From Anaerolineae bacterium (GTDB lineage Bacteria > Chloroflexota > Anaerolineae > Aggregatilineales > Phototrophicaceae), in NCBI GenBank assembly GCA_034437355.1, contig DAOTUA010000179.1, positions 1,790-65,789 on the forward strand: DNA of 64,000 nt, read 5' to 3'. The translations under genes and the position numbers were made by a program. The first letter of the stretch is position 1, and each line of letters starts with the position of its first letter. Under the pieces are notes generated by a model. The model was not told the origin of the DNA, searched no databases, and worked only from the letters and a program-made list of their open reading frames with translations. Of the stretch, positions 3,592 through 43,206 are shown piece by piece.

Positions 3592-4857
<1,266 letters not shown>

Positions 4858-29685: not shown

Positions 29686-30747
29686 CTATAGCGCCGCCAA
29701 CACCGCCGATGCGAATTCGTCCGTACTCACATACGCCCCGCCCTTCGGCGCAATATCCGCCGTCCGCAGGCCATCAGCCAATACCCGATCCACCGCCGCC
29801 TCGACCGCCGCCGCTGCCTGCTCTAGCTGCAAACTGTAGCGTAACAGCATCGCCGCACTCAAGATCATCGCGGTCGGGTTCGCCTTGCCCGCCCCCGCAA
29901 TATCCGGCGCAGACCCATGAATCGGCTCGTATAACCCAAACGTCCCCGTCCCAATCGACGCCGACGGCAACATCCCCAAAGACCCCGCCAACACGCTCGC
30001 CTCATCGCTCAGGATGTCCCCAAACATATTCCCCGCCAACACCACATCAAAATCGCCGGGACGTGTGAGCATGTGCATTGTCGCCGCATCCACCAGCAAA
30101 TGCTCCAACTCCACATCGGCGTAATCCTCATGCACCTCCACCACGGACCGCCGCCATAACCGCATCGCCGCCAGCACATTCGCCTTATCCACCGACGTTA
30201 ACTTGCCACGCCGCCCCTGTGCCGCCCGGAACGCGATATTCGCCACCCGTTCGACCTCCCCCCGCGAATAATACATCGTGTCATACGCATGATCCCCGTC
30301 CCCCTGTTCCTGCCGTTCCCCAAAATAAATCCCGCCGGTCAGTTCCCGTACAAACAGCATATCCACATTCGCCAACAGGTCCGGGCGTAACGGCGCATGT
30401 TCCGCTAGCGCCGGGTACGCTTTCACCGGGCGCAAATTCGCAAACAACCCGAAGTGCTGCCGAATTTTCAGTAACCCCTGTTCTGGCCGGACCGGGGCAG
30501 TCGGGTCGCTCCATTGCGGTCCCCCCACCGCCCCCAATAACACAGCATCCGCCCCCTCACACAGCGCAATTGTCGCCGCCGGCAACGGGTCCCCCGTCCG
30601 ATCAATCGCAATCCCCCCGATTAACCCTTCCTCAAATGTGAACGTATGCCCGAACTTCGCCGCAACCGCCCGCAAGACCTCAACCGCCTTCGCCGTCACC
30701 TCCGGCCCGATGCCGTCCCCCGGCAAAACTGCTATCTTCGCATCCAT
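29686..30747 (-). CDS. leuB: 3-isopropylmalate dehydrogenase
   Basis: 353-aa [34 protein letters not shown] and GSAPDIAG are IPMDH signatures. Confidence 0.95.
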
Positions 30748-30792
30748 AAAAATCTAACCCCTTCTATGACTATCAATCTATCCAAAAATCGA

Positions 30793-31275
30793 TCACTGTG
30801 AACCGTCTAATACCGCTACGCTCACCCCCACGCGCCCCGCCTGGAAACCGTTAAACGCATTGACCCGCACTCGATACGTCCCTCGCTCCAACTGCAACAC
30901 CGGGATTTCCGCATCTGTCGGGGCCAGTTCTTCATCGCTTGCCGTCTGCCGGTCATCGCCATACGCAAGCTGCACCCCTTCCGCATCCAACACATCCACC
31001 ACCACATCTAACGGATTCCCCGCCCCATCATCCGATAACGCCCTTGCCGTGATCCGCACCTGCTGCGCTTCCGATGCGCTATAGGTCAATACCACATACG
31101 CCCCGCCCGGTAATGCTACCGTTTTCGTCTCGTCCGCTGTAAGCGCCCCCGCCGCAACCGCTGTCGGGATCGCCGTGGGTGGGGTGCGCGGCTCCAATGT
31201 CGGGCGCGGCGTGATCGTCGGCGGTGTTGCGGTTGGTTGCGCCCCACATCCCGCCAGCACCCAGGCCAGCACCAT
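30793..31275 (-). CDS. small secreted lipoprotein (beta-rich, pre-peptidase-C-terminal-like?) embedded in the leu operon
   Basis: The track ORF begins at 31410, inside cimA. ATG 31275 gives MVLAWVLAGCGAQPTATPP with an LAGC lipobox, and TTG 31299 is an alternative start. The domain guess for the C-terminal ~110 aa is weak. Confidence 0.55.
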   Translation of the reverse strand: MVLAWVLAGCGAQPTATPPTITPRPTLEPRTPPTAIPTAVAAGALTADETKTVALPGGAYVVLTYSASEAQQVRITARALSDDGAGNPLDVVVDVLDAEGVQLAYGDDRQTASDEELAPTDAEIPVLQLERGTYRVRVNAFNGFQAGRVGVSVAVLDGSQ

Positions 31276-31285
31276 CACCCCGATA

Positions 31286-32890
31286 CTAATCTGCCGCAAT
31301 GGTACGCTGCCGTTCTGCTTCCTGCTCCGGGACCGCCACCCGCAGCCCATACTCAACGCTATCCACCAGCGCCAACCAACTGGCCCGGATAATGTTCGAC
31401 CCCGCCCCAACGGAACTCCAGCGCCGGTGTCCCATCTGCGTATCGATCAACACCCGCGTCGTTGCGGCTGTCCCCTGGTCACTGTTCAAAATACGCACCT
31501 TATAATCTACCAGTTGGAAATCGCGCAGGTGCGGGTACCGTGGGATCAATGCTTTGCGTAACGCCATGTCTAACGCATTGACCGGCCCGTTACCCTCTGC
31601 CGCCGTGTGCATAATGTCCCCGTCCACGTCGATCTTTACCGTCGCCTCCGCCAACGGGCCACGCCCCCGCCGATCCTCAACAATTGTCGTAAAGTCGATC
31701 AGCTTGAAAATCGGCTCATAATCCGGCTGCGCACGTAATAACCGAATCGCCACCGACGCCTCCGCCCCCTCAAACACATACCCCTCATTTTCCAACATTT
31801 TGATCTCATCCAGCACCCGCCGCGCTTCATCCTTGTTCACATCCAGGCCCAGTTCTTCCGCCTTACTCAACACATTCCCCCGCCCGGATAAATCCGACAC
31901 CAGCACGCGCATCTCATTTCCCACCAGCGACGGGTCGATATGCTGGTAACTATCCACATTCCGGCGGATGGCTGCAACGTGAATCCCGCCTTTATGCGCA
32001 AACGCACTCTTACCCACATACGCCAGATGACCATCCGGCGCAAGGTTCGCTGTCTCCGCTACCGACCGCGCCACATACGTCAGATGCTTCAGATTCTCCG
32101 GCGGCACACAGACATACCCCATCTTGAGTTGTAAATCTGGTATGATGCTGCACAAGTTTGCATTCCCGCAACGCTCCCCATACCCGTTGATTGTCCCCTG
32201 TACCTGCCGCGCCCCCGCCTGGACCGCCGTCAGCGTATTGGCGACGGCTAGCTCGCTGTCGTTGTGCGTGTGAATCCCCAACTGCACACCAGGGAACGTC
32301 TCGCGGACCGTCTCCACATAGTGCGTCACGTCCCACGGCAACGAGCCGCCGTTCGTATCACACAACACCACACAATCCGCGCCCCCGTCTATCGCCGCCT
32401 TGATCGTGTCGAAAGCGTACTCGAAATCCAACTTGGCCCCATCAAAGAAGTGTTCCGCATCGTAGATCACCTCTTTGCCCACACCCTTCAAATACGCCAC
32501 ACTCTCCCGGATCATGCGCAGGTTTTCGTCCGGCGTCGTCCGCAACACATCCGTAACGTGCAACATCGACGTTTTCCCCACCAGGGTCACCACCGGCGTT
32601 TGAGCATCCAACAGCGCCCGGATATTGGCATCCTCCGCCGGCGATGACCCCTTCCGGCACGTAGACCCAAACGCCGTGATCTTAGCGTGCTTCAGGTCCA
32701 TCTCGCGCACCGCCTCGAAGTACCCCGCATCTTTCGGGTTCGACCCAGGCCACCCGCCCTCAATGTAAGCGACCCCCAACTCATCCAACATCTGCGTGAT
32801 CTTCAGCTTGTCCGCTAATGATAACGCGATCCCCTCCCGTTGGGTGCCATCCCGTAATGTCGTGTCGTAGATGGCGACATATTCTGTCAT
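31286..32890 (-). CDS. cimA: citramalate synthase (LeuA-related, CimA type)
   Basis: 534-aa ORF. MTEYVAIYDTTLRDGTQREGIALSLADKLKI...IEGGWPGSNPKD is the typical N-terminus of the CimA/LeuA_rel clade, distinct from the leuA product encoded at 35120..36733. Confidence 0.8.
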   Translation of the reverse strand: MTEYVAIYDTTLRDGTQREGIALSLADKLKITQMLDELGVAYIEGGWPGSNPKDAGYFEAVREMDLKHAKITAFGSTCRKGSSPAEDANIRALLDAQTPVVTLVGKTSMLHVTDVLRTTPDENLRMIRESVAYLKGVGKEVIYDAEHFFDGAKLDFEYAFDTIKAAIDGGADCVVLCDTNGGSLPWDVTHYVETVRETFPGVQLGIHTHNDSELAVANTLTAVQAGARQVQGTINGYGERCGNANLCSIIPDLQLKMGYVCVPPENLKHLTYVARSVAETANLAPDGHLAYVGKSAFAHKGGIHVAAIRRNVDSYQHIDPSLVGNEMRVLVSDLSGRGNVLSKAEELGLDVNKDEARRVLDEIKMLENEGYVFEGAEASVAIRLLRAQPDYEPIFKLIDFTTIVEDRRGRGPLAEATVKIDVDGDIMHTAAEGNGPVNALDMALRKALIPRYPHLRDFQLVDYKVRILNSDQGTAATTRVLIDTQMGHRRWSSVGAGSNIIRASWLALVDSVEYGLRVAVPEQEAERQRTIAAD

Positions 32891-32896
32891 GGTTGG

Positions 32897-33514
32897 TTAA
32901 CCCCTTACCACATCGGTATTAATACGTTTTTTGTTGCTTGTTTCATAGGTCGATGTCGCATCATCCATCCCCAACAAATACCCCATCTGATCCACCCCAT
33001 TTAACAGACAATGCTTGCTAAACGCATCAATTGGGAACGTCACCCGCCGCCCATCCGGGAGCGTGAGCGTCTGCGATTCCAGGTCGATCTCTATCGCGGC
33101 TTCCGGGTCTTCCTGCGCCAAGCTCACCAACTGCCGGTGCGTTTCCTCGTCTACCACCACCGGCAGCAGACCGTTCTTTAACGAATTGTTGCGGAAGATG
33201 TCCGCAAAGTACGTGCTGATGATCGCCTTCAGCCCGGCAGCCTTCAACGCCCACGGCGCATGTTCGCGGGAACTCCCGCAGCCGAAGTTATGCCCGCCGA
33301 TCAACACCTGCGCCCCGTCATACTCCGGCTGGTTTAGCACAAAATCCGGCTTGGGCGTGCCGTCCGCCTCATAGCGCCAGTCCGCGAAGGCGTTCGCCCC
33401 AAGGCCGTTCTTATCCGTCACCTTCAAAAATCGGGCCGGGATAATCTGATCTGTATCAATATCATTGATCGGTAACGGTGCCATCGTCGCCTTGAACTTC
33501 TTAATAGGTTCCAT
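32897..33514 (-). CDS. leuD: 3-isopropylmalate dehydratase small subunit
   Basis: 205-aa ORF with aconitase swivel-domain motifs (DTDQIIPARFL, GGHNFGCGSSREHAPWAL). Confidence 0.95.
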   Translation of the reverse strand: MEPIKKFKATMAPLPINDIDTDQIIPARFLKVTDKNGLGANAFADWRYEADGTPKPDFVLNQPEYDGAQVLIGGHNFGCGSSREHAPWALKAAGLKAIISTYFADIFRNNSLKNGLLPVVVDEETHRQLVSLAQEDPEAAIEIDLESQTLTLPDGRRVTFPIDAFSKHCLLNGVDQMGYLLGMDDATSTYETSNKKRINTDVVRG

Positions 33515-33552
33515 TGCTTGTTTTCTCCCTCATCTTTCTGATATTTTTACCG

Positions 33553-34998
33553 TTACGCCAGCACCGCGTCCGCCTCACCAAGCGTTACTCGTGGGTCGGT
33601 GATCGTCCCGTTGATTGCGGTGGCCGCCGCCGTTAACGGGCTTGCCAAAAACGTTCGCCCGCCTTTCCCCTGGCGGCCCTCAAAGTTACGGTTGCTGGTG
33701 CTAACCGCATATTGCCCCGGCGCAAGTTGATCGCCGTTCATCGCAATACACATCGAACAGCCCGCCTCGCGCCACTCTGCGCCTGCCGCTCGGAACACTT
33801 CATCCAGGCCTTCGCGTTCCGCCTGCTTCTTCACCTGTTGGCTGCCAGGGACAACCATCATCCGCACGTTATCGGCTACCTTGCGCCCACGCATCATCTT
33901 GGCCGCTAAGCGCAAGTCACTGATGCGCGAATTGGTGCAACTCCCCAAAAACACTACATCAACCGGTTTGCCAAGCAGCGATTGCCCCGGCTGCAACCCC
34001 ATATACGTTAGCGCCTTATCTAACGCCTGGCGCTCGCCCACATCCTTCATCGCGTCCGGGTCGGGCACCGCATCCGTGATCCGCATCCCCATGCCGGGGT
34101 TTGTCCCGTAAGTGATCATCGGCACCAGGTCATCCGCATTGAGTTCAATCACCGCGTCGAACTGCGCGTCCGGGTCGCTCGGTAGCTTGCGCCACTCATT
34201 AACTGCCGCTTCCCAGTCTGTGCCGGTCGGTGCTGCCGGACGCCCATAGATATAATCGAAGGTCGTTTCATCCGGTGCCACCATCCCGGCCCGCGCCCCG
34301 CCTTCGATACTCATATTGCAGATCGTCATCCGGCCTTCCATGCTCAACTTACGGATCGCGCTCCCCATGTATTCCAGCACATAACCCGTACCGCCCCCAA
34401 CCCCGATCTTGGCGATGATCGCCAGGATAATATCTTTTGCCACAACCCCTTCGCCCAGGTCGCCCTCCACTTTGATCGCCATCGTCTGAGGCCGATTCTG
34501 TAATAGTGTCTGCGTGGCGAGGACGTGCGCAACCTCACTCGTCCCAATCCCGAAGCCCAACGCCCCGAACGCCCCGTGTGTACTCGTGTGGCTGTCCCCA
34601 CACACAATCGTCATCCCCGGCTGTGTTAACCCCTGCTCTGGCCCGATTACATGCACAATCCCCTGTTTCTCGCCGCCCAATTCAAATAACGGCACATCGA
34701 AATCCGCACAGTTTTTGACCAACGTCTCCAGTTGCTTCTGTGCCAGCGCATCCTGCACCGGGATGATCCCATCCGCATTACGTGGGGTAGTCGGCGTGCT
34801 GTGGTCCATCGTCGCCAACGTCTGATCCGGACGCCGCACGCTTAGCCCGCGCTCCCGCAATTGCGCGAACGCCTGCGGCGATGTCACCTCATGGACCAGG
34901 TGCAGGTCAATATACAACACCGCCGGGGCATCCTCCGTTTGTGGGCGCACCAGGTGCTTATTCCATACTTTCTCGAACAGCGTCTTGGGTTGTCTCAT
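33553..34998 (-). CDS. leuC: 3-isopropylmalate dehydratase large subunit
   Basis: 481-aa ORF with aconitase-family motifs ([42 protein letters not shown]). Confidence 0.95.
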
Positions 34999-35092
34999 TT
35001 CTCGTTATCCCTTAATTACTTTCGTGTTACGTGTATCGTGTTTGTCGTCGGAGGCATCCATTGATACCCACCATCCATAAATAGGTGCAAGC

Positions 35093-35112
35093 GAGGGCCT
35101 CTGTGCCCTCCC
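35093..35112. repeat. GC-rich hairpin GAGGGC-N6-GCCCTCCC in the leuA-leuC spacer (REP-like family)
   Basis: GAGGGCCTCTGTGCCCTCCC, read directly. The same core occurs at 36917, 44841, 49444 (reverse orientation) and 62702. Confidence 0.6.
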
Positions 35113-35119
35113 GTATCAA

Positions 35120-36733
35120 TCACACCTCTTTACGGGCCACACCGACCGTCGCCGCTTCCCCCTCTGGCCGATGATACCCATGCCCGGTAAACGCCAGCAT
35201 CCGGTTGAGCGCGGCTAAGTACGCCTGCACACTCGCCACGATCACATCCGGGTTGGCACCATACCCCCCGAACGTCTGCTTTCCATCCAGTGTAGAAATG
35301 CGCACCGTTACCTCTCCGTGCGCCTCGATTCCCTCCGTCACACTGTGAACATGATACTCTACCAGCGTGTTCTCCGCACCGATCACCGCATCCAACGCCC
35401 GGTAAGCCGCATCCACCGGACCCACCCCCACCGCCGCCTGGATGATTTCCTCCCCTTCCATCGTATTCAGACGGGCCGTTGCCGTCGGCATCCCCATCGT
35501 ACCGCACGTCACCTGAATATCCAGCAGCGAATAAAACTCCTGTAATTCGCCTACCTCATTCGCCATCAACGCCTGCAAATCCGCATCCGTGACGGTCTTT
35601 TTCTCGTCCGCCAGGTCCTTAAACCGCCGGAACACATCCTTCAGCGTCTCATCATCCAGATCGTAGCCCAGTTCACCTAACCGCACCCGCAACGCATGAC
35701 GCCCGCTATGCTTGCCCAGCACCAACCGCGACTGCGTTAATCCGACCGTCTCCGGCGTCATGATCTCGTAGGTACTCGCGTGCTTTAACATCCCGTCCTG
35801 ATGAATCCCGGCCTCGTGCGCAAACGCATTGGCCCCCACAATCGCCTTATTCGGCTGGACATACATCCCGGTATAATTGCTAACCATCCGGCTGGTTTTT
35901 GTGATCTCCGATGTGATCGTATTCGTCCGTAAATTGTAAAAATCCGGGCGTGTATGGATCGCCATTACCACTTCCTCCAGGCTGGTATTCCCGGCACGCT
36001 CCCCGATGCCGTTTACCGTCACCTCCACCTGCCGCGCCCCATTCTCCACCCCCGCCAGCGTGTTCGCCGTTGCTAACCCCAGGTCGTTATGACAATGCAC
36101 CGACCAGATCACCCCGCTACCCGGGCCAGCCCCCGGCGTTTCCGCAATTAGCCCGGTAATCGTTTTGCCCCACTCATCCGGCGTGACATACCCCACCGTA
36201 TCCGGGATATTCAGCGTCGTTGCGCCACACTCGACCGCCACCGTCAACACCTCGATCAGATACGCCATATCCGTTCGGCCCGCGTCCATCGGGCTAAATT
36301 CCACATCATCGCACAGGCTTTTGGCCAACGTGACCGCCATCCGTATCTTCTCTACTCCCTGCTCACGAGTCAGCCCGGTCTGATACTTCAAATGAATATC
36401 CGACGTGCCCAGGAATGTATGAATACGCGGTTTTGCCGCCGCTTTCACCCCCTCCCAACACTTCAGGATGTCTCCTTCTACCGCCCGCGCCAACCCGCAG
36501 ATCGTTGGCCCTGTCTCCGTGCCGACCTCCCGCGCAATTCGCTGTACCGCCGCCATATCATCCGGCGACGCCGCCGGGAACCCGGCCTCGATCACATCCA
36601 CACCCAACCGATCCAACTGCCGCGCAATCTCTAGCTTCTCCGCACTAGAAAGCGTCGCGCCAGGGCTTTGCTCGCCGTCGCGCAACGTCGTATCAAAGAT
36701 GATCACCGTTTCGCTATCATATGTCCTTACCAT
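35120..36733 (-). CDS. leuA: 2-isopropylmalate synthase
   Basis: 537-aa [19 protein letters not shown] and [16 protein letters not shown] are present, with a C-terminal LeuA dimerisation/regulatory domain. Confidence 0.95.
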
Positions 36734-36766
36734 TGGGGGAGTTCCTTTCCAGTTCTCAGACTCATC

Positions 36767-36823
36767 AAAAAAGGTGTTTCGTTAGTATCCGGCACAAGGT
36801 CACTTTCCGACACAGAAACCACC
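36767..36823 (-). terminator. intrinsic-terminator-like hairpin plus U6, 33 nt upstream of the leuA start codon (candidate attenuator)
   Basis: The minus-strand RNA is GGUGGUUUCUGUGUCGG-AAAGUGACCUUGUG-CCGGAUACUAACGAAACACC followed by UUUUUU. The outer arms GGUG(G)UUUC / GAAACACC pair with one bulge. Confidence 0.5.
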
Positions 36824-36916
36824 CCCTTTCGATACGTCAGCCGGGTTATCATCCATTTGGCTTAGCCTCATCAAACTATGACTCGCGCACCTTCTCACAC
36901 CGTTATGCTGTGATCG

Positions 36917-36938
36917 GGGAGGGCTACCGCGCCCTCCC
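36917..36938. repeat. GC-rich hairpin GGGAGGGC-N6-GCCCTCCC just downstream of the ilvC stop (REP-like family)
   Basis: GGGAGGGCTACCGCGCCCTCCC, read directly. No U-tract follows on the minus strand. Confidence 0.6.
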
Positions 36939-36947
36939 GTCTTTGAC

Positions 36948-37958
36948 CTAATCTTGCTGCTTGATTTTCTTCGCATCCAAGAACGGCATCATATCGCGCA
37001 ACTGTTCCCCGACTTCCTCGATCATCAGATCATGCTCTTTGTTGCGCCGCGCATTGAAGTTCGGGCGGCCCTGCTCATTTTCCTCGATCCACCGGTTCGC
37101 AAAATCCCCGTTCTGGATGCGATGCAACACCCCGTCGAACTCCTCTTTGATCATCCCCTCGATCTTGTCGCCCACCTCATAGCCGCCCTGTTCGGCTGTA
37201 TTGCTCACGCTATACCACATATAGCTCAGGCCGCCCTCATACATCAGATCGACGATCAGCTTTAACTCGTGCATACACTCAAAATAGGCCACCTCCGGCT
37301 GATACCCAGCCTTCACCAACGTCTCGAACCCCGCCCGGACCAAGGCCGTCACCCCACCACACAGGATGCTCTGCTCTCCGAACAAGTCCGTCTCCGTCTC
37401 TTCCTTGAATGTCGTTTCGATCACACCTGCCCGCGTGCAACCAATCGCGTTTGCATAAGCCAGCGCCTTCGGCATCGCCTGCCCAGACGCATCCTGATAA
37501 ACCGCCACCAGCCCCGGCACCCCGGCCCCCTCCGTGAACACCTCGCGTACCCGGTGGCCGGGAGCCTTCGGCGCAACCATCGTCACGTCCACCGTCTCCG
37601 GCGGGACGATCGTCTCAAAGTGGATGTTAAACCCATGCGCAAACATCAACATCGCGCCCGCCTTCAAATTCGGCGCGATCTCCGCCTCGTATACGCTCGG
37701 CTGCACCGTGTCCGGTAGCAGGATCATCACCACATCCCCCACCGAAACCGCCTCCGGCACCGTCATCACCGTCAGCCCTTCCGCCTCGGCCTTCGGACGG
37801 CTGCTGCTACCCTCACGTAGCCCCACAACCACCTGCATCCCGTTATCCTTCGCGTTCAGCGCGTGGGCGTGGCCCTGGCTCCCAAACCCGATAACGGCAA
37901 TGGTCTTGCCCTCTAATAAGCTGCGATCTGCGTCTTTGTCGTAGTAAAGCGTTGCCAT
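36948..37958 (-). CDS. ilvC: ketol-acid reductoisomerase
   Basis: 336-aa [38 protein letters not shown] is the classic class I KARI N-terminus. Confidence 0.95.
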
Positions 37959-37999
37959 GTCGTCATACCCTTCTTGAAAATCCTTGTCAATAAAGTCTA

Positions 38000-38022
38000 G
38001 TGGGCAGGCACATGCCTACCCC
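38000..38022. repeat. GTAGG-type hairpin element in the ilvN-ilvC spacer
   Basis: The minus strand reads GGGGTAGGCATGTGCCTGCCCAC, with the same GTAGG lead and GC-rich stem style as the other elements. Confidence 0.4.
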
Positions 38023-38044
38023 ATATCCTGCCAGTTTACACGCC

Positions 38045-38638
38045 CTAAACGTGGTTGTGTACGCCGTCCCCGTTCATCATCTGTTTCTTACGGACCTCCG
38101 GCGGCTCATAAGCGGTGTCAATGATGCGCGTCCCGCGTGCCATCGCCACAATCCCCGTCCGTACCATCTCGATGATCCCAATTGGGCGCAACTCATCAAT
38201 ACATGCCGCGACCCGTTCCTCCGTCGCCGTAATCTCGATAATCGCAACGTCCGTCCCGATGTCCACAATCCGCGCCGGGTAACGCTCGCAGATTTCCGCC
38301 ACCGAATTATACGAATCTGTGTCGTTCGTCCGCACCTTGATCAGCGCCAGGTCCCGCGACACATACGGCTGATCTCGCAGAATCCGCACATCAATCACGT
38401 TCACCATCTTCTTTAGGTTCTCCGAGATCAACCGCGCATTCGACCGCTGCGTATCGACAACAATCGTCATCCGCGAAACGTGCGGGCGATGCGTGCGGCC
38501 CACCGTCAAGCTGTCCACATTAAAACTGCGCCGCCGGAACATGCTCGCCACCCGGTTAAGCACACCCGGCTTATTCTCCACCAGGGCTACCACCGTGATC
38601 TTATGACCTTGCTTCATTTCCTCTGTCATGAGTGTCAC
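38045..38638 (-). CDS. ilvN: acetolactate synthase small (regulatory) subunit
   Basis: 197-aa ORF. HKITVVALVENKPGVLNRVASMFRRRSFNVDSLTVG is the ACT-domain signature of IlvN/IlvH. The GTG start directly follows the ilvB stop, and internal ATGs at 38629 or 38617 are alternatives. Confidence 0.9.
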   Translation of the reverse strand: MTLMTEEMKQGHKITVVALVENKPGVLNRVASMFRRRSFNVDSLTVGRTHRPHVSRMTIVVDTQRSNARLISENLKKMVNVIDVRILRDQPYVSRDLALIKVRTNDTDSYNSVAEICERYPARIVDIGTDVAIIEITATEERVAACIDELRPIGIIEMVRTGIVAMARGTRIIDTAYEPPEVRKKQMMNGDGVHNHV

Positions 38639-40345
38639 CTATGCCTTTTCGTTTGGTTTCGGACGACGGATCATATCGTGTAAATCGGCCCCGGCTGGCA
38701 CCATCGGATACACCATATCATCCTTCTCGATCATATACTCGATCAACACCGGGCCATCCACACTACGCGCAAACTCAACCGACTGCTCGATCTCCGCCCG
38801 CGACGTGACCCGCATACTTGGGATACCGTAAGCCTCCGCCAACTTGCAAAAATCCGGGTTCCACATCGGCGTAGACTGATACCGTTCATCGTAGAAAATC
38901 TCCTGCCACTGCCGCACCATCCCCAAAAACCCATTGTTGAGAATGGCAATATTTACGTTGATGTTCTCCTGGGCTGCCGTTGCCATCTCGCACAACGTCA
39001 TCTGAAAGCCACCATCCCCCACTATCGCCCAAACTTCCTCCTCCGGCTTTGCGAACTTCGCCCCAATCGCCGCCGGGAAGCCAAAACCCATCGTCCCCAG
39101 GCCGCCACTCGTTAACATCGTATTCGGGCGGCGGTGCGGGTAATACTGCGCCTCCAACATCTGATGCTGCCCCACATCCGTAACCGTGACCGCTTCGCCG
39201 TCGGTATACTTCCACAAATCGTTAATCACCTGCGGCCCGATCAACTTATCCCCCACATCATGCTTCAAAATGTCACGCTCGTCGGCGTCCTCGTGCCAAT
39301 CGCGGATGCGGTTCAACCACGGGCTGCGGTCACCCGTTGCCAGCCGGGGGAGCCACTGCGACAACACCGTCCGCACATCCCCCGCGATCCCCACATCCAC
39401 CGTCACATTCTTATGCAACTCCGACGGGTCAATATCCACATGAATCTTCTTCGCGTGCGGGGCATACGTTTTTAAGTTGCCCGTCACCCGGTCATCAAAC
39501 CGCATCCCCAGCGCGATCAACAGGTCCGCCTCTTGGATCGCATGGTTGACCGCCGCGTCCCCGTGCATCCCCATCCAACCGACCGCCATCGGATGCTCCG
39601 GCGGGATGGCCCCCTTACCCAGCAACGTCAACGCAATCGGGATATTCGCCCGTTCCGCAAACTCGCGTAACTCCGCTGTCGCCCCAGACATCAAAATACC
39701 GTGCCCCCCAAGGATGATCGGGCGCTGCGCCGCATGAATCAACGCCAGCGCCGCGTCTACCTCATCGTCGGATGCCAAACTCGGCGGCTGATACCCCGGC
39801 AAAATAATCTCATCCTCCGGGTAATCAAACTCCGCCAGCTGCTTCTGAACATCCTTCGGCACATCAACCAGCACCGGCCCTGGGCGGCCCGTCCGCGCAA
39901 TATGGAACGCCTCGCGCATCACATACGCCAGTTCTTCAACATCCGTCACCAGGTAATTGTGCTTCGTCACCGGCAGCGTCACCCCGGTTACGTCCGTCTC
40001 CTGGAACGCATCGCTGCCAATCGCCCCGGTTGCTACCTGCCCGGTAATGGCTACCACCGGCACCGAATCCATCATCGCCGTCGCCAACCCGGTCACCAGG
40101 TTTGTTGCCCCCGGCCCACTCGTCGCTATACATACCCCCACCTTACCCGAAGCCCGCGCATAACCATCTGCCATATGGCTCGCGCCCTGCTCATGACGTA
40201 CCAACACATGATGAATCTCGTTGCGGAACTTGTGCAGCGCATCATACGTCGGCAAGATCGCCCCGCCGGGGTAGCCGAAAACCACCTCGACCCCCTCCTT
40301 TATCAACGACTTGATGATAATATCCGAACCTGTCATCTGCGACAT
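38639..40345 (-). CDS. ilvB: acetolactate synthase large subunit
   Basis: ThDP-enzyme motifs are present (GYPGGAILP, GPGATNLVTG, GLGTMGFGFPAAIGA). I prefer ATG 40345 (GGAGAGGAG 9 nt upstream, giving MSQMTGSDIIIKSL) to the track start at 40396, which overlaps ilvE and has no SD. Confidence 0.9.
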   Translation of the reverse strand: MSQMTGSDIIIKSLIKEGVEVVFGYPGGAILPTYDALHKFRNEIHHVLVRHEQGASHMADGYARASGKVGVCIATSGPGATNLVTGLATAMMDSVPVVAITGQVATGAIGSDAFQETDVTGVTLPVTKHNYLVTDVEELAYVMREAFHIARTGRPGPVLVDVPKDVQKQLAEFDYPEDEIILPGYQPPSLASDDEVDAALALIHAAQRPIILGGHGILMSGATAELREFAERANIPIALTLLGKGAIPPEHPMAVGWMGMHGDAAVNHAIQEADLLIALGMRFDDRVTGNLKTYAPHAKKIHVDIDPSELHKNVTVDVGIAGDVRTVLSQWLPRLATGDRSPWLNRIRDWHEDADERDILKHDVGDKLIGPQVINDLWKYTDGEAVTVTDVGQHQMLEAQYYPHRRPNTMLTSGGLGTMGFGFPAAIGAKFAKPEEEVWAIVGDGGFQMTLCEMATAAQENINVNIAILNNGFLGMVRQWQEIFYDERYQSTPMWNPDFCKLAEAYGIPSMRVTSRAEIEQSVEFARSVDGPVLIEYMIEKDDMVYPMVPAGADLHDMIRRPKPNEKA

Positions 40346-40382
40346 CTCACGTTTCTCCTCTCCAACTCCTAATGATGGCCTA

Positions 40383-41312
40383 TTACCCGTTGACATGCGT
40401 CAACCAGTTGAATGTGTCCGGCTGTTTACCCGACGTAATCCCGAAAAACCGATCCTGCACCGCCTTCGTGACCGCCCCTCGCGCCCCACCACCGATCCGA
40501 ATCCGATCAACAGAGCGAATCGGCGTGATCTCCGCCGCCGTCCCCGTAAAGAAAATCTCGTCCGCCACATACAACATCTCACGCGGTAACGCCTGGAACT
40601 GCACCTCATACCCCAATTCTGCCAGGATTTGCAGCGCACTATCCCGCGTGATCCCCATCAAAATAGACGATGCCGCCCCCGGCGTATACACCACCCCATC
40701 CGCCACCACAAACAGATTTTCCCCCGCCCCCTCACTGACCAACCCGTTCATATCCAGCGCGATCCCCTCCGTAAACCCGTTATCCTTCGCTTCCATACTG
40801 ATGTACTGGCTGTTGATGTACTGCCCGCCAATCTTGCCCATCGGCGTGAGCGCCCCCGGCGACATCCGCCGCCACGAACTCACCGCCACATCAACCCCCT
40901 GCTCAATCGCCTCTTGCCCCAGGTAGCGCCCCCACTCCATCGTGATAATCGATATATCCGTCGGCGTTGTGCGCCCCTCCAACCCTTGCAGCCCGTTCGG
41001 ATGTGCCCCCCGGTACACCACCGGACGAATATAACAGGACTCATGCCCGTTACGCCGCACCGTCTCCAAGATCGCCGCGTTGATCTCCTCCGCCGTATAA
41101 TCCAGCTCGATCCGCGCAATCTTGGCAGAATTCATCATCCGCGTTGTGTGTTCCGCTAACCGGAACACCGCCGCCCCCTTATCTGTCGCATAGGCCCGTA
41201 TTCCCTCAAATACGCTCGACCCGTAATGCAGCGCGTGCGCCGTCACATGCACGGTTGCATCCTCGTATTTCACGAACTCGCCATTCATCCAGACCCATTC
41301 CGCTGTCGCCAT
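40383..41312 (-). CDS. ilvE: branched-chain amino-acid aminotransferase
   Basis: 309-aa ORF of class IV aminotransferase type (LHYGSSVFEGIRAY, GEGAGENLF, TGTAAEITP). Confidence 0.9.
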   Translation of the reverse strand: MATAEWVWMNGEFVKYEDATVHVTAHALHYGSSVFEGIRAYATDKGAAVFRLAEHTTRMMNSAKIARIELDYTAEEINAAILETVRRNGHESCYIRPVVYRGAHPNGLQGLEGRTTPTDISIITMEWGRYLGQEAIEQGVDVAVSSWRRMSPGALTPMGKIGGQYINSQYISMEAKDNGFTEGIALDMNGLVSEGAGENLFVVADGVVYTPGAASSILMGITRDSALQILAELGYEVQFQALPREMLYVADEIFFTGTAAEITPIRSVDRIRIGGGARGAVTKAVQDRFFGITSGKQPDTFNWLTHVNG

Positions 41313-41337
41313 CGGTGTTACCCTCTTTGCTCAATCG

Positions 41338-41394
41338 TAAAATAAAAAACGCGCCGTTGCCCCTCTCCGATACGCGGTAGGGCAGTCGGCGCGT
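41338..41394 (-). terminator. long intrinsic-terminator hairpin plus U-tract, 25 nt upstream of the ilvE start codon
   Basis: The minus-strand RNA is ACGCGCCGAC-UGCCCU-ACCGCGUAUCGGAG-AGGGGCA-A-CGGCGCGU followed by UUUUUAUUUU. There is no U-tract on the plus strand. Confidence 0.55.
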
Positions 41395-41504
41395 CCTGTA
41401 TACATAACGCAGGCCGGCACGCATCACATATCGCAGATGCCGCTTGTTGGTACGGTATTGCTTGACCAGCCTGTAATCTTCCCACGTTTCTGGTTCCTAT
41501 CCTC

Positions 41505-41536
41505 AAAATTAAAAAACCTCCCTGGCTTGGGAGGCT
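41505..41536 (-). terminator. attenuator terminator of the ilv leader
   Basis: The minus-strand RNA is AGCCUCCC-AAGCCA-GGGAGGUU followed by UUUUAAUUUU, about 47 nt after the leader-ORF stop. Its 5' arm is also complementary to the segment right after that stop codon (see findings). Confidence 0.65.
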
Positions 41537-41582
41537 TCTGATTATCTTTGCTTTGCCTTAGAAAAAAAGCCACCCAAGCACC

Positions 41583-41666
41583 TTAGAACCCGCCTATAAT
41601 AAGTACGAGTACAAGTACAACAATAATACTAATAACGACGCTCAGGCTACGAATTTTTGCGTTCAC
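41583..41666 (-). CDS. ilv-leu operon leader peptide candidate, 27 aa (MNAKIRSLSVVISIIVVLVLVLIIGGF)
   Basis: My translation runs from GTG 41666-41664 to TAA 41585-41583, with an in-frame TGA six codons upstream. Sixteen of 27 residues are Val (6), Ile (6) or Leu (4), including an unbroken run of 11. This is the same style as enterobacterial IlvL (MTALLRVISLVVISVVVIII...). No SD is visible. The ORF is too short for the ORF track. Confidence 0.6.
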   Translation of the reverse strand: MNAKIRSLSVVISIIVVLVLVLIIGGF

Positions 41667-41716
41667 GGCAAAAACACACTTTCATCTGGTTTCAATTACT
41701 TCACTTACACTACAAA

Positions 41717-41745
41717 AGATTACCGCCCCATGCGCAGGCTGTCAA
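41717..41745 (-). promoter_or_regulatory. sigma-70-like promoter for the ilv leader transcript
   Basis: The minus strand reads TTGACA, then a 17-nt spacer (gcctgcgcatggggcgg), then TAATCT. It lies ~50 nt upstream of the leader GTG and ~85 nt downstream of the argH stop. Confidence 0.45.
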
Positions 41746-41829
41746 CCCATTCACTCCCGAAAAAATCGCTTTATCAAAACTTCATATATATTGACCGCTA
41801 TCCGTTGTGCATACCACACAAACCCGATC

Positions 41830-43206
41830 TTATACCTCACCCGCCAAGATCGCCTGGGCTTGCTCAATCTGCTCGCGCACCGCATCCGGCGCAGTCCCCC
41901 CCGCCGCCCGACGGTTCGCCACCGACGCCTCAAAATCGAACACCGCCGCCACATCCACCTCAAATAACCCGGAAATCTCCCGCAAATCCGCCAGTGTAAG
42001 CGCCGACAGCCCCACCCCGCGCGTTTCCGCTAACCTGACTGCTTCCCCCGCCACATGATGCGCCTCACGGAACGGCATCCCCCGCCGCACCAGATAATCC
42101 GCCAAATCCGTGGCCAGCATCGCCGGGTCCAGTGCCGCCCGCATCTTCTCCGGGTCAAAGCGCAACGTCCGCACCACCGCCGTTATCACTGGCAGCAACG
42201 CCAATAACGTATCTGTTGCATCGAACAATGCTTCCTTATCTTCCTGTAAATCCTTATTATAGCCACTCGGCAAGCCCTTCAACGTCGCTAAAAACCCCGT
42301 CAAATTGCCGATCAACCGCCCCGCCTTTCCCCGCGCCAGTTCCATCGGGTCAGCATTACGCTTCTGCGGCATCAAACTAGACCCCGTACTATACCGATCA
42401 TCCAACACCACAAACCCGAACGCCGGGTTGCTGTACAAGATCACATCCTCCGCTAACCGGCTCAGATGCACCCCACACAACCCCAGGCCGAACAACACCT
42501 CCGCCACAAAATCTCGGTCGCTAACCGCATCCAGGCTGTTCTTGCTGATCGCCTCAAATCCTAACCGTTCCGCCAGCGCCGCCCGGTCAATCTCAAACGG
42601 ATTCCCTGCCAACGCGCCCGACCCCAACGGCAACACCGCCGCCCGGCCCCGTGCATCCCCCAACCGCCCAATATCCCGTTCAATCATCCAAAAAAAGCTC
42701 ATCAACCAATGCCCGACCGTGATCGGCTGGGCCGGCTGTAAATGCGTATACCCCGGCATGATCGTTTCCACCTCCGCCGCCGCCTGCTCCATCAATGCCG
42801 CCTGCACGCCCCGCAACGCCCCGACCAACTCATCTACCGCCCCCATCACCCACAACCGAAAATCCGTCGCCACCTGATCGTTGCGAGAGCGCCCCGTGTG
42901 CAGCTTCCCCCCCACCGGGCCTACAATTTCCGTCAGACGGCGCTCAACCGCCGTGTGAATATCCTCATCTCCCGGCTTGTACTCAAACACACCGCTTTCA
43001 ATCTCCCCCCGTACCCGATACAGCCCATCTACCAGCTTTTCAGCTTCCAGTGGGGTGATCACCCCCGCCATCTGGATCGCCCGCGCATACCCCACACTCC
43101 CCGCAATATCTTGTAACGCCAACCGCCGATCATACGGCAAGCTATCGTTTAACTTGCGTAGATCGTCGTCCGTCGGCTCCTGGAACCGCCCGCCCCATAA
43201 TGTCAT
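41830..43206 (-). CDS. argH: argininosuccinate lyase
   Basis: 458-aa ORF. MTLWGGRFQEPTDD, the fumarate-lyase signature GSSLMPQKRNAD, and TGRSRNDQVATD are present. Confidence 0.95.
   Translation of the reverse strand: MTLWGGRFQEPTDDDLRKLNDSLPYDRRLALQDIAGSVGYARAIQMAGVITPLEAEKLVDGLYRVRGEIESGVFEYKPGDEDIHTAVERRLTEIVGPVGGKLHTGRSRNDQVATDFRLWVMGAVDELVGALRGVQAALMEQAAAEVETIMPGYTHLQPAQPITVGHWLMSFFWMIERDIGRLGDARGRAAVLPLGSGALAGNPFEIDRAALAERLGFEAISKNSLDAVSDRDFVAEVLFGLGLCGVHLSRLAEDVILYSNPAFGFVVLDDRYSTGSSLMPQKRNADPMELARGKAGRLIGNLTGFLATLKGLPSGYNKDLQEDKEALFDATDTLLALLPVITAVVRTLRFDPEKMRAALDPAMLATDLADYLVRRGMPFREAHHVAGEAVRLAETRGVGLSALTLADLREISGLFEVDVAAVFDFEASVANRRAAGGTAPDAVREQIEQAQAILAGEV

Follow-up and report, generated by a model that had tools for sequence, protein, structure and literature searches.

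A conserved leader peptide with predicted multivalent attenuation upstream of an ilv-leu-cimA cluster in Anaerolineae, followed by a second terminator

The window analysed here is a stretch of 64,000 nucleotides (nt) of contig DAOTUA010000179.1 from an Anaerolineae bacterium, and the element in question lies on its minus strand between argH and ilvE, the first structural gene of a cluster that ends with leuB. Positions 41745-41313 very likely constitute the regulatory leader of the ilvE...leuB operon. The first stage of this leader is well supported, by comparison with related sequences, as a multivalent ribosome-mediated transcription attenuator, and the operon is very probably switched on when branched-chain amino acids (BCAAs) run short. 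An earlier note, drawn from the letters of the window alone, had read the region as an attenuator of the ilvL/ivbL kind, and the comparison bears this out: the short open reading frame (ORF) is conserved, both alternative helices covary and the promoter is conserved. The leader as predicted is bipartite, a first terminator (terminator 1) that belongs to the attenuator being followed by a second one (terminator 2) with an overlapping ORF (ORF 2). The coordinates of all elements are collected in Table 1.

Translation of the first ORF of the leader (leader ORF 1) agreed with the earlier description of 27 codons from GTG 41666 to TAA 41583, with 16 codons for isoleucine, leucine or valine (I/L/V), namely 6 Val, 6 Ile and 4 Leu, of which 11 are consecutive. 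The regulatory I/L/V run corresponds to codons 10-24, that is 15 codons, most of them rare. Indeed, when codon usage was taken from 13 genes of the window, the two Leu codons found in the leader, CTT and CTC, each accounted for 3% of Leu codons; Val inside the leader is never encoded by GTG (65% of Val codons), the only GTG being the start, and Ile is never encoded by ATC (54% of Ile codons). No other ORF of 15-60 amino acids with at least 10 I/L/V residues out of 12 is present on either strand of the window (128 kb in all). Across the family, the core of the peptide is made of 24% L, 24% I and 22% V (70% I/L/V), F, A, M, W, Y and C together represent less than 3%, and the core is broken by polar residues (S, N, G, T or D). 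Such a composition agrees with a set of regulatory codons for each of the three amino acids but not with a membrane helix. The reading frame, the start codon and the position of the stop are kept in all 45 leader sequences compared, although the run varies in both sequence and length; it nevertheless always stays I/L/V, and the peptide outside the run is poorly conserved. Searches with the leader peptide gave no NCBIfam match at E values up to 10, and against Pfam noise only, with two unrelated families at E 0.2-0.7, below the cut-offs.

Eighty loci carrying relatives of ilvE (56-83% identity for ilvE) were fetched from species-representative genomes. All of them are from Chloroflexota, mostly metagenome-assembled genomes (MAGs) of Anaerolineae (Aggregatilineales, Phototrophicaceae and others), and the ilvE relatives place the host in the same phylum and in the class Anaerolineae. 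Of the 48 closest loci, 44 had the leader design 5' of ilvE, namely the promoter, an ORF of 22-30 codons and a stop just before (G)GCUUGGG; a short ORF with an I/L/V run is therefore conserved at this place in relatives, as the earlier reading called for. Three of the four exceptions have related leaders 5' of ilvD-ilvE instead, and 13 metagenome loci add further copies. A covariance model (R1) built from the 44 relatives, the window being excluded, hit the window over its full length at 41510-41633 (minus strand) with 76.9 bits and an E value of 5e-16, and nothing else significant was obtained with it in the whole window. R1 also found 29 further instances in other loci. The ORF, the segment that follows its stop (segment 2) and the terminator occur together next to different upstream genes, including upstream of ilvD. 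Altogether, the sequences point to a well-supported leader family of about 70 members in Chloroflexota (Anaerolineae).

Two competing structures can be drawn downstream of the leader stop. Segment 2 begins 4 nt after the stop in the window (2-4 nt in most relatives), 16 nt beyond the last I/L/V codon, and pairs at 11 of 12 positions with AAGCCUCCCAAG (41537-41526), which lies in segment 3, the strand that also provides the 5' arm and loop of terminator 1. The two strands, which the earlier note had placed at 41578-41567 and 41537-41526, were found there with the pairing that it gave, as was the terminator with its U-tract. In the family, segment 2 reads (G)GCUUGGG(U/C)GG, with a core GCUUGGG that is nearly invariant in the leader alignment (A1); in some relatives (L003, L005 and distant "...GVGRA" leaders) it lies inside the 3' end of the ORF. 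The masking geometry first proposed also holds, for with the stop 2-4 nt before segment 2 a terminating ribosome, whose footprint size is established knowledge, would cover segment 2.

The evidence that segments 2 and 3 pair is comparative. On alignment A1, 87.7% of the cells of the 2:3 helix are paired, compared with 36-60% after a shift of the partner strand by 1-3 columns. Compensatory changes were observed from C-G to U-A (L001, L011, L021, L025), from U-A to G-C (L045, L047, L048) and from U-A to C-G (L025). These sites are unpaired in the terminator, where they fall in the loop, and therefore only the 2:3 pairing explains them. On folding, the 2:3 helix was formed by 41 of the 45 sequences once the 3' arm of the terminator was withheld; in the window the antiterminator reached -18.6 kcal/mol under this condition, to be compared with -16.5 kcal/mol for terminator 1, which is the comparison of alternatives that the earlier note had proposed. 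Terminator 1 itself is present in all 45 sequences: a hairpin rich in G/C, with energies from -12 to -19 kcal/mol, leads into U5-9, and positions 4, 6 and 7 of its stem covary (C-G, U-A, G-C and A-U), so that both the 2:3 and the 3:4 pairings expected of an attenuator show covariation. For this terminator RNAalifold gave only 4 pairs, MAFFT having misaligned the 3' arm, and it was replaced by extraction of the hairpin from each sequence. In the minimum-energy fold of the full leader, 42 of the 45 sequences formed the terminator, with segment 2 paired to some upstream stretch.

Variants of this arrangement were seen in more distant Anaerolineae. Tandem I/L/V-rich leader ORFs, each with a terminator, precede ilvD-ilvE (ilvE in L060) in eight loci (Table 1). 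They are of two types, "...LLVIVLLVIIGGVFGVGRA" and "...LSLIIVIVLGLLLVIEKE..RVGT..", many of which were detected by R1, and in both types a segment complementary to the terminator loop appears inside the ORF. A Thermoflexales MAG (L070) has three R1 matches (2001-2138, 4265-4377 and 4509-4640), one just 5' of ilvE and two 3' of it, which suggests several attenuators within one ilv cluster. In distant Anaerolineales (L054-L056, L061-L063, L068 and L077, around 2380-2900), one or two tRNA genes stand directly 5' of ilvE and replace the leader.

We then looked at the start of the leader transcript. The promoter that had been noted between 41745 and 41717, TTGACA, a spacer of 17 nt and TAATCT, is present and is conserved in sequence and position in the relatives. 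A perfect TTGACA, exactly 17 nt and TAnnnT (mostly TAnnCT) were found in 39 of 45 leaders, and in 41 of 45 when one deviation was allowed; the end of the -10 hexamer lies 100-138 nt before the leader stop, a fixed distance among the 45 leaders compared. Transcription would thus start near 41710, as inferred from this conserved promoter, and the predicted 5' untranslated region is short (about 25-45 nt). A generic sigma-70 promoter scan did not call the leader promoter, because its -10 sequence matches TATAAT at only 3 of 6 positions, and it was recovered only through the comparison of 45 loci. In the 41 loci the -10 variants are TACGCT, TACTCT, TAATCT and similar sequences in place of TATAAT, and the TAnnCT form may reflect what the housekeeping sigma factor of these Anaerolineae prefers in a promoter.

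Several results weigh against reading the region as an attenuator. The folding energy of the leader region is not below that of shuffled sequence (z from -0.25 to -0.40). The 1:2 helix of the textbook four-segment model is not specifically conserved: its position varies among the 45 sequences and the duplex does not exceed in strength what shuffled upstream sequence gives (mean z -0.41). The -10 hexamer of the window, with its three matches, is far from the consensus. Finally, leader ORF 1 starts with a GTG devoid of a Shine-Dalgarno sequence, as in most relatives, and a motif search flagged a Shine-Dalgarno-like sequence 5' of the candidate leader start in only 5 of 45 leaders. The support for the attenuator is, as far as these data go, comparative and not thermodynamic.

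According to the established attenuation model, from which the ribosome positions and the response to amino-acid supply are inferred, the first stage would work as follows. Transcription would begin near 41710 and a ribosome would translate the 27-codon leader. When charged Ile-, Leu- and Val-tRNAs are plentiful, this ribosome would reach the stop codon and cover segment 2; segment 3 would then pair with segment 4, terminator 1 would form and the U-run (41516-41511) would bring the polymerase to a halt. With any one of Ile, Leu and Val in short supply, the ribosome would stall in the I/L/V run and leave segment 2 free to pair with segment 3, which would block terminator 1 and let transcription proceed.

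Three other explanations of the first stage were considered. A leader of the RNA-only or factor-dependent type (a riboswitch, a T-box-like element or the target of an RNA-binding protein), with an incidental ORF, seems very unlikely to us. It would sit well with the marked conservation, at the nucleotide level itself, of the run (GUACUCGUCCUUAUU) and of GGCGGGUUAUAA, with the lack of a Shine-Dalgarno sequence at most leader starts and with the T-boxes reported in Chloroflexi (PMC3766115), but the frame, start and stop are constant around a run that varies and yet stays I/L/V, and no conserved structured aptamer was found upstream of segment 2. Moreover, Rfam 15 was searched with cmscan over 41200-41900 of the window at E up to 10, over 10 relatives at E up to 1 and over 20 distant loci at the gathering score, and no T-box or riboswitch match was obtained. 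The whole window has no hit at the gathering score. The best Rfam match in it, Phe_leader, scored 25.4 bits for a threshold of 55 and was driven by the terminator; the relatives did not exceed 34.5 bits. As candidates for the family itself, T-boxes, riboswitches and the known leader families (Leu_, Thr_, His_, Trp_ and Phe_leader) were rejected, all being below the gathering threshold.

There is a minimal chance that the short ORF is the gene of a genuine small membrane peptide of hydrophobic character, for instance a toxin or an assembly factor, with a terminator of its own and no role for ilvE: the peptide does resemble a single transmembrane helix, related peptides show a weak sub-threshold similarity to small membrane proteins and gene callers could list the ORF as a hypothetical protein, but the core is almost only I, L and V in equal shares with A, F, M and W nearly absent and polar interruptions, the ORF always stands directly 5' of ilvE or ilvD, its stop is fixed 2-4 nt ahead of a segment in covariation with the terminator loop, and the codons are rare, the Shine-Dalgarno missing and the peptide poorly conserved outside the run. 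It is just as hard to credit that the hairpin at 41539-41512 is the terminator of an argG-argH unit and that the ORF and the complementarity are coincidental next to an independent, unregulated ilvE promoter, since, even if the interval from the argH stop (41830) to ilvE holds just the two terminators and nothing stands out in the folding z-scores, the stretch from argH to the leader ORF, upstream of the hairpin, contains a conserved promoter, the ORF, segment 2 and terminator are found as a set beside different upstream genes, also ahead of ilvD, and a plain terminator cannot explain the 2:3 covariation.

The multivalent attenuator proposed here has its closest parallels in ilvL (ilvGMEDA) and ivbL (ilvBN) of E. 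coli and Salmonella. As in these, Ile, Leu and Val codons form a run in a short leader ORF, an intrinsic terminator precedes the first structural gene, an antiterminator that excludes it is formed with its 5' arm, and control would depend on where the ribosome stands. In ilvL, Ile, Leu and Val codons occur in roughly equal numbers, as in the family of the window. Unlike ilvL and ivbL, to which it has no sequence or profile similarity, the family belongs to the phylum Chloroflexota, its stop abuts segment 2, it has no demonstrably conserved 1:2 "protector" helix and no Shine-Dalgarno, a second terminator follows, and the genes controlled form a fused ilvE-ilvBNC-leuA-leuCD-cimA-leuB cluster. 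T-box leaders (RF00230), the usual amino-acid sensor of Firmicutes, have in common with it the amino-acid biosynthesis operon, the choice between terminator and antiterminator and the genomic position, but a translated ORF takes the place of the specifier-loop architecture.

Outside Proteobacteria, the Corynebacterium ilvB-II upstream ORF and the ilvB-OMG and Leptospira ilvB motifs are BCAA-codon-rich ORFs before ilv genes that have been read as attenuators (PMC10272879). They differ in lying upstream of ilvB and in encoding peptides that are also rich in Thr (PMC10272879), whereas the family of the window has its own sequence, GCUUGGG ... CCCAAGC in a G/C-rich terminator; the ilvB-related Rfam models gave no match in the window (E up to 10) or in ten relatives (E up to 1). 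We thus regard the leader as a new family, defined by sequence, within the known class of ribosome-mediated attenuators. Documented cases of leader-peptide attenuation come mostly from Proteobacteria, Actinobacteria and a few Firmicutes (PMC2965389, PMC1262725, PMC10272879); according to Naville and Gautheret (2010), such systems were known only from the first two phyla before their own Firmicutes examples (PMC2965389). No description of such attenuation in Chloroflexi/Chloroflexota was found in the literature searched, which did not include the survey of Lopatovskaya et al. 2010 (Mol Biol 44:128). The belief expressed in the earlier note, that attenuation had not been characterised in this lineage, is consistent with this and with the lack of an Rfam family.

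The principle is textbook; what is added is a clean, large and unannotated family in a phylum for which no report was found. It lets annotators label an unannotated regulatory gene in mostly uncultured genomes, points to TTGACA-17-TAnnCT as the likely promoter type of these organisms and places ilv, leu and cimA genes under one predicted multivalent control.

Terminator 1 is not the last predicted obstacle before ilvE. A further 198 nt separate them, and they contain terminator 2, a stem with seven G-C pairs at its base located 37 nt before ilvE; a simple terminator scan misses it because its loop exceeds 8 nt. The original layout is thus retained for terminator 1, but it was incomplete, since read-through of the 41536-41505 hairpin alone would not reach ilvE. 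Two classes of loci can be told apart by the spacing between the leader stop and ilvE: 18 have one terminator and a spacing of about 95-190 nt, and 27, among them the window, have a spacing of 248-368 nt and carry an extra element without any family match in Rfam. In 26 loci a homologous strong terminator (-15 to -37 kcal/mol) precedes ilvE by 26-44 nt (74 nt in L034).

This terminator is overlapped by an ORF. In the window, ORF 2 runs through terminator 2 and stops 5 nt before the ATG of ilvE, and the AGGAA that precedes it aligns with AGGAA-N8-ATG in L025. Shine-Dalgarno sites are present for ORF 2 and for ilvE, unlike leader ORF 1. In the 26 loci, ORF 2 starts 10-40 nt after terminator 1, usually with a purine-rich ribosome-binding motif, and in all 26 it reaches or abuts terminator 2, with 18 stops within the hairpin, 1 at the foot and 7, including that of the window, past it. 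With a stricter test, ORF 2 reached terminator 2 in 24 of 26 loci, for 9.9 expected from dinucleotide shuffles. The frame in which the conserved 5' arm GCGCUUUCC is read changes with the clade, giving DALS, CAF or TRL, and it is therefore the ORF that is maintained and not the peptide. No frameshifting indels were found in ORF 2 between close locus pairs, and its substitutions show only a weak third-position excess, so that the peptide is mostly unconstrained. ORF 2 peptides had no family match in profile databases.

The distribution of I/L/V codons in ORF 2 depends on the distance to the terminator. More than 8 codons upstream of terminator 2 they represent 3.3% of the codons (30/910), compared with 20.3% in the other two frames, a depletion of about six-fold, and from there onward 14-17%, compared with 13-17% in the other frames. 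ORF 2 was rejected as a classical leader for another amino acid: no codon run was seen, and A, Q, S and M are only mildly enriched. A search in 14 loci found no conserved RNA partner (antiterminator) for the 5' arm of terminator 2.

These features recall pyrBI of E. coli (leader pyrL), where the terminator is suppressed by a closely following ribosome and UTP is sensed through polymerase pausing. On this model, a polymerase that has passed terminator 1 would meet terminator 2, and a ribosome translating ORF 2 close behind it would physically prevent formation of the hairpin. Full expression of the operon would then need BCAA-specific stalling on leader ORF 1 together with otherwise competent translation of ORF 2. 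Such a ribosome must reach the hairpin unstalled during BCAA starvation and stalling is harmless once it is there, so that I/L/V avoidance is expected upstream only. Shared with pyrBI are the ORF through the terminator that ends just before the structural gene and the lack of an RNA antiterminator. The differences are that a UTP or pausing signal is not evident, the proposed signal being a general translational competence inferred only from the codon avoidance, and that the stop lies inside the hairpin loop in most relatives and not beyond. In E. coli, termination at an intrinsic terminator falls from about 90% to less than 10% when a ribosome stops a few bases away (PMC4824070). That terminator 2 is a ribosome-masked terminator of the pyrBI type is nonetheless a tentative reading of the sequences, to which we give somewhat less than an even chance.

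Indeed, part of the data speaks against masking by ORF 2. When the window is taken by itself, 42% of shuffles yield an ORF that reaches terminator 2 (p 0.42). Its ORF 2 is not depleted in I/L/V codons (10 of 55, the GTG start being counted as V), and the upstream part has three of them (L4, I10 and I19). The loci are phylogenetically related, and the counts for ORF 2 overstate their independence; the metagenome scan added only one locus in the clade of the window, L081 (79%). Besides, with a constant lag between ribosome and polymerase it is not obvious how masking could be conditional.

It is a serious possibility, if not one that we favour, that terminator 2 is constitutive and partial, or under a trans-acting factor, and that ORF 2 is not functionally translated. 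The chance-like statistics of ORF 2 in the window, where the peptide is unconserved and I/L/V codons are not depleted, would be accounted for, and attenuator 1 alone suffices in 18 relatives. Against this stand the maintenance of the ORF across clades in spite of the frame changes at the terminator, its Shine-Dalgarno sites, which leader ORF 1 lacks, the I/L/V avoidance that is specific to frame and position, and synonymous variation within conserved motifs in one clade. Distinctly unlikely is a second BCAA sensor, in which I/L/V codons at the 5' arm (L27, TTA, and I29, ATA, in the window) would stall a ribosome on the arm and thereby mask the hairpin. Of 26 ORF 2 sequences, 24 do have one or more I/L/V codons in the arm or no farther than about 8 codons from it, after 20-48 codons almost free of them, and I29 of the window (ATA, a 6% codon) is 2 codons before the arm. 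However, I/L/V codons near the terminator have the frequency of the other frames, and are tolerated rather than enriched; L011 and L032 have no such codon; and under replete conditions a ribosome stopping inside the loop would mask the hairpin too.

In one clade (L006, L007, L010, L018, L019, L020, L024, L083 and L089), ORF 2 has 63-67 codons (for example L019:2747-2938) and carries the motifs TSPWTE(A)(F/Y) and PTHDALS(D/A)IYNRGY. Within these motifs the Pro codon occurs in all four synonymous forms, and the Thr, Glu, Ile and Tyr codons also vary synonymously. This pattern indicates, for this clade, selection on the ORF 2 peptide itself, which would perhaps be an arrest or sensing peptide.

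The overlap of terminator 2 by an ORF with position-specific avoidance of BCAA codons provides, at the level of sequence, a real lead towards a two-signal gate. That the whole leader acts as a two-stage logic gate not described before, with a first stage opened by stalling and a terminator held open by a ribosome on an ORF purged of I/L/V codons, is possible but rather doubtful. If true, the operon would be transcribed only when BCAA shortage specifically slows translation, the second stage being a built-in specificity filter, and it would stay closed under general starvation, under ribosome shortage or upon stalling at the Ser, Asn, Gly or Thr codons of leader ORF 1. The second stage would then have been exchanged in evolution, as the distant Anaerolineae carry two I/L/V-rich tandem leaders. 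If the masking by ORF 2 is true, the leader would be a natural example of a stalling sensor combined with a coupling sensor for specificity, of relevance to transcription-translation coupling. A leader with two short ORFs, mgtM and mgtP, which integrate ATP and proline signals, is described for mgtCBR of Salmonella (PMC3641672). It has in common with the present leader two short translated ORFs that each affect downstream termination; the mgtCBR ORFs act via alternative stem-loops there, unlike the second ORF here, which overlaps the terminator itself.

Table 1. Elements of the ilvE leader in the window, flanking genes, and loci with tandem leaders (strand given for the window).
Feature	Position	Strand	Basis
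-35 hexamer TTGACA of the leader promoter	41740..41745	-	sequence read; conserved in relatives
-10 hexamer TAATCT (family consensus TAnnCT)	41717..41722	-	sequence read; conserved in relatives
Leader ORF 1, 27 codons + stop, MNAKIRSLSVVISIIVVLVLVLIIGGF	GTG 41666 to TAA 41585-41583 (41583..41666)	-	translation
Segment 1 GCCUGAGCG, codons 7-9; can pair with segment 2 without a ribosome; tentative	41639..41647	-	minimum-energy fold
Segment 2 (G)CUUGGGUGGCUU, antiterminator 5' strand	41567..41579 (CUUGGGUGGCUU = 41578-41567)	-	sequence read; covariation
Segment 3 AAGCCUCCCAAGC, antiterminator 3' strand and terminator 1 5' arm and loop	41525..41537	-	covariation
Terminator 1, 11-bp hairpin 41539-41512 into U6 tract 41516-41511	41511..41539	-	terminator scan
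Shine-Dalgarno-like AGGAA, 7 nt (41492-41486) before the ORF 2 GTG	41493..41497	-	sequence read
ORF 2, 55 codons, GTG 41485 to TAA 41320-41318, through terminator 2	41318..41485	-	translation
Terminator 2, stem 41393-41350 (extendable to 41397), -26 kcal/mol, then UUUUUUAUUUU 41349-41339	41339..41397	-	folding
ilvE, first structural gene of the regulated cluster	40383..41312	-	NCBIfam equivalog match
argH end and ilvE start, with all leader elements between them	41830 and 41312	-	
Tandem-leader loci	L039:791-1087, L044:862-1173, L046:879-1162, L050:880-1162, L053:861-1182, L057:910-1194, L060:2481-2780, L065:884-1184		

The gene order on the minus strand is argH, leader, ilvE-ilvB-ilvN-ilvC-leuA-leuC-leuD-cimA-(small ORF)-leuB. 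From the start of ilvE to the end of leuB the cluster measures 11.6 kb and runs to 29686; argH, ilvE, ilvB, ilvN, ilvC, leuA, leuC, leuD, cimA and leuB were all matched by NCBIfam equivalog models, and a terminator search found no strong minus-strand terminator inside the cluster. The operon (29686-41312) has cimA, for citramalate synthase, but neither ilvA nor ilvD. Isoleucine is thus presumably made via the citramalate route, with ilvD encoded elsewhere; in more distant relatives ilvD is directly 5' of ilvE. The gap between cimA and leuB, 538 nt long, holds an ORF of about 160 amino acids (30793-31299, minus strand) that had no Pfam match. Its N-terminus (VMVLAWVLAGCGAQP...) resembles a lipoprotein signal peptide. 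The ORF is an unrelated small gene that lies within the ilv-leu cluster.

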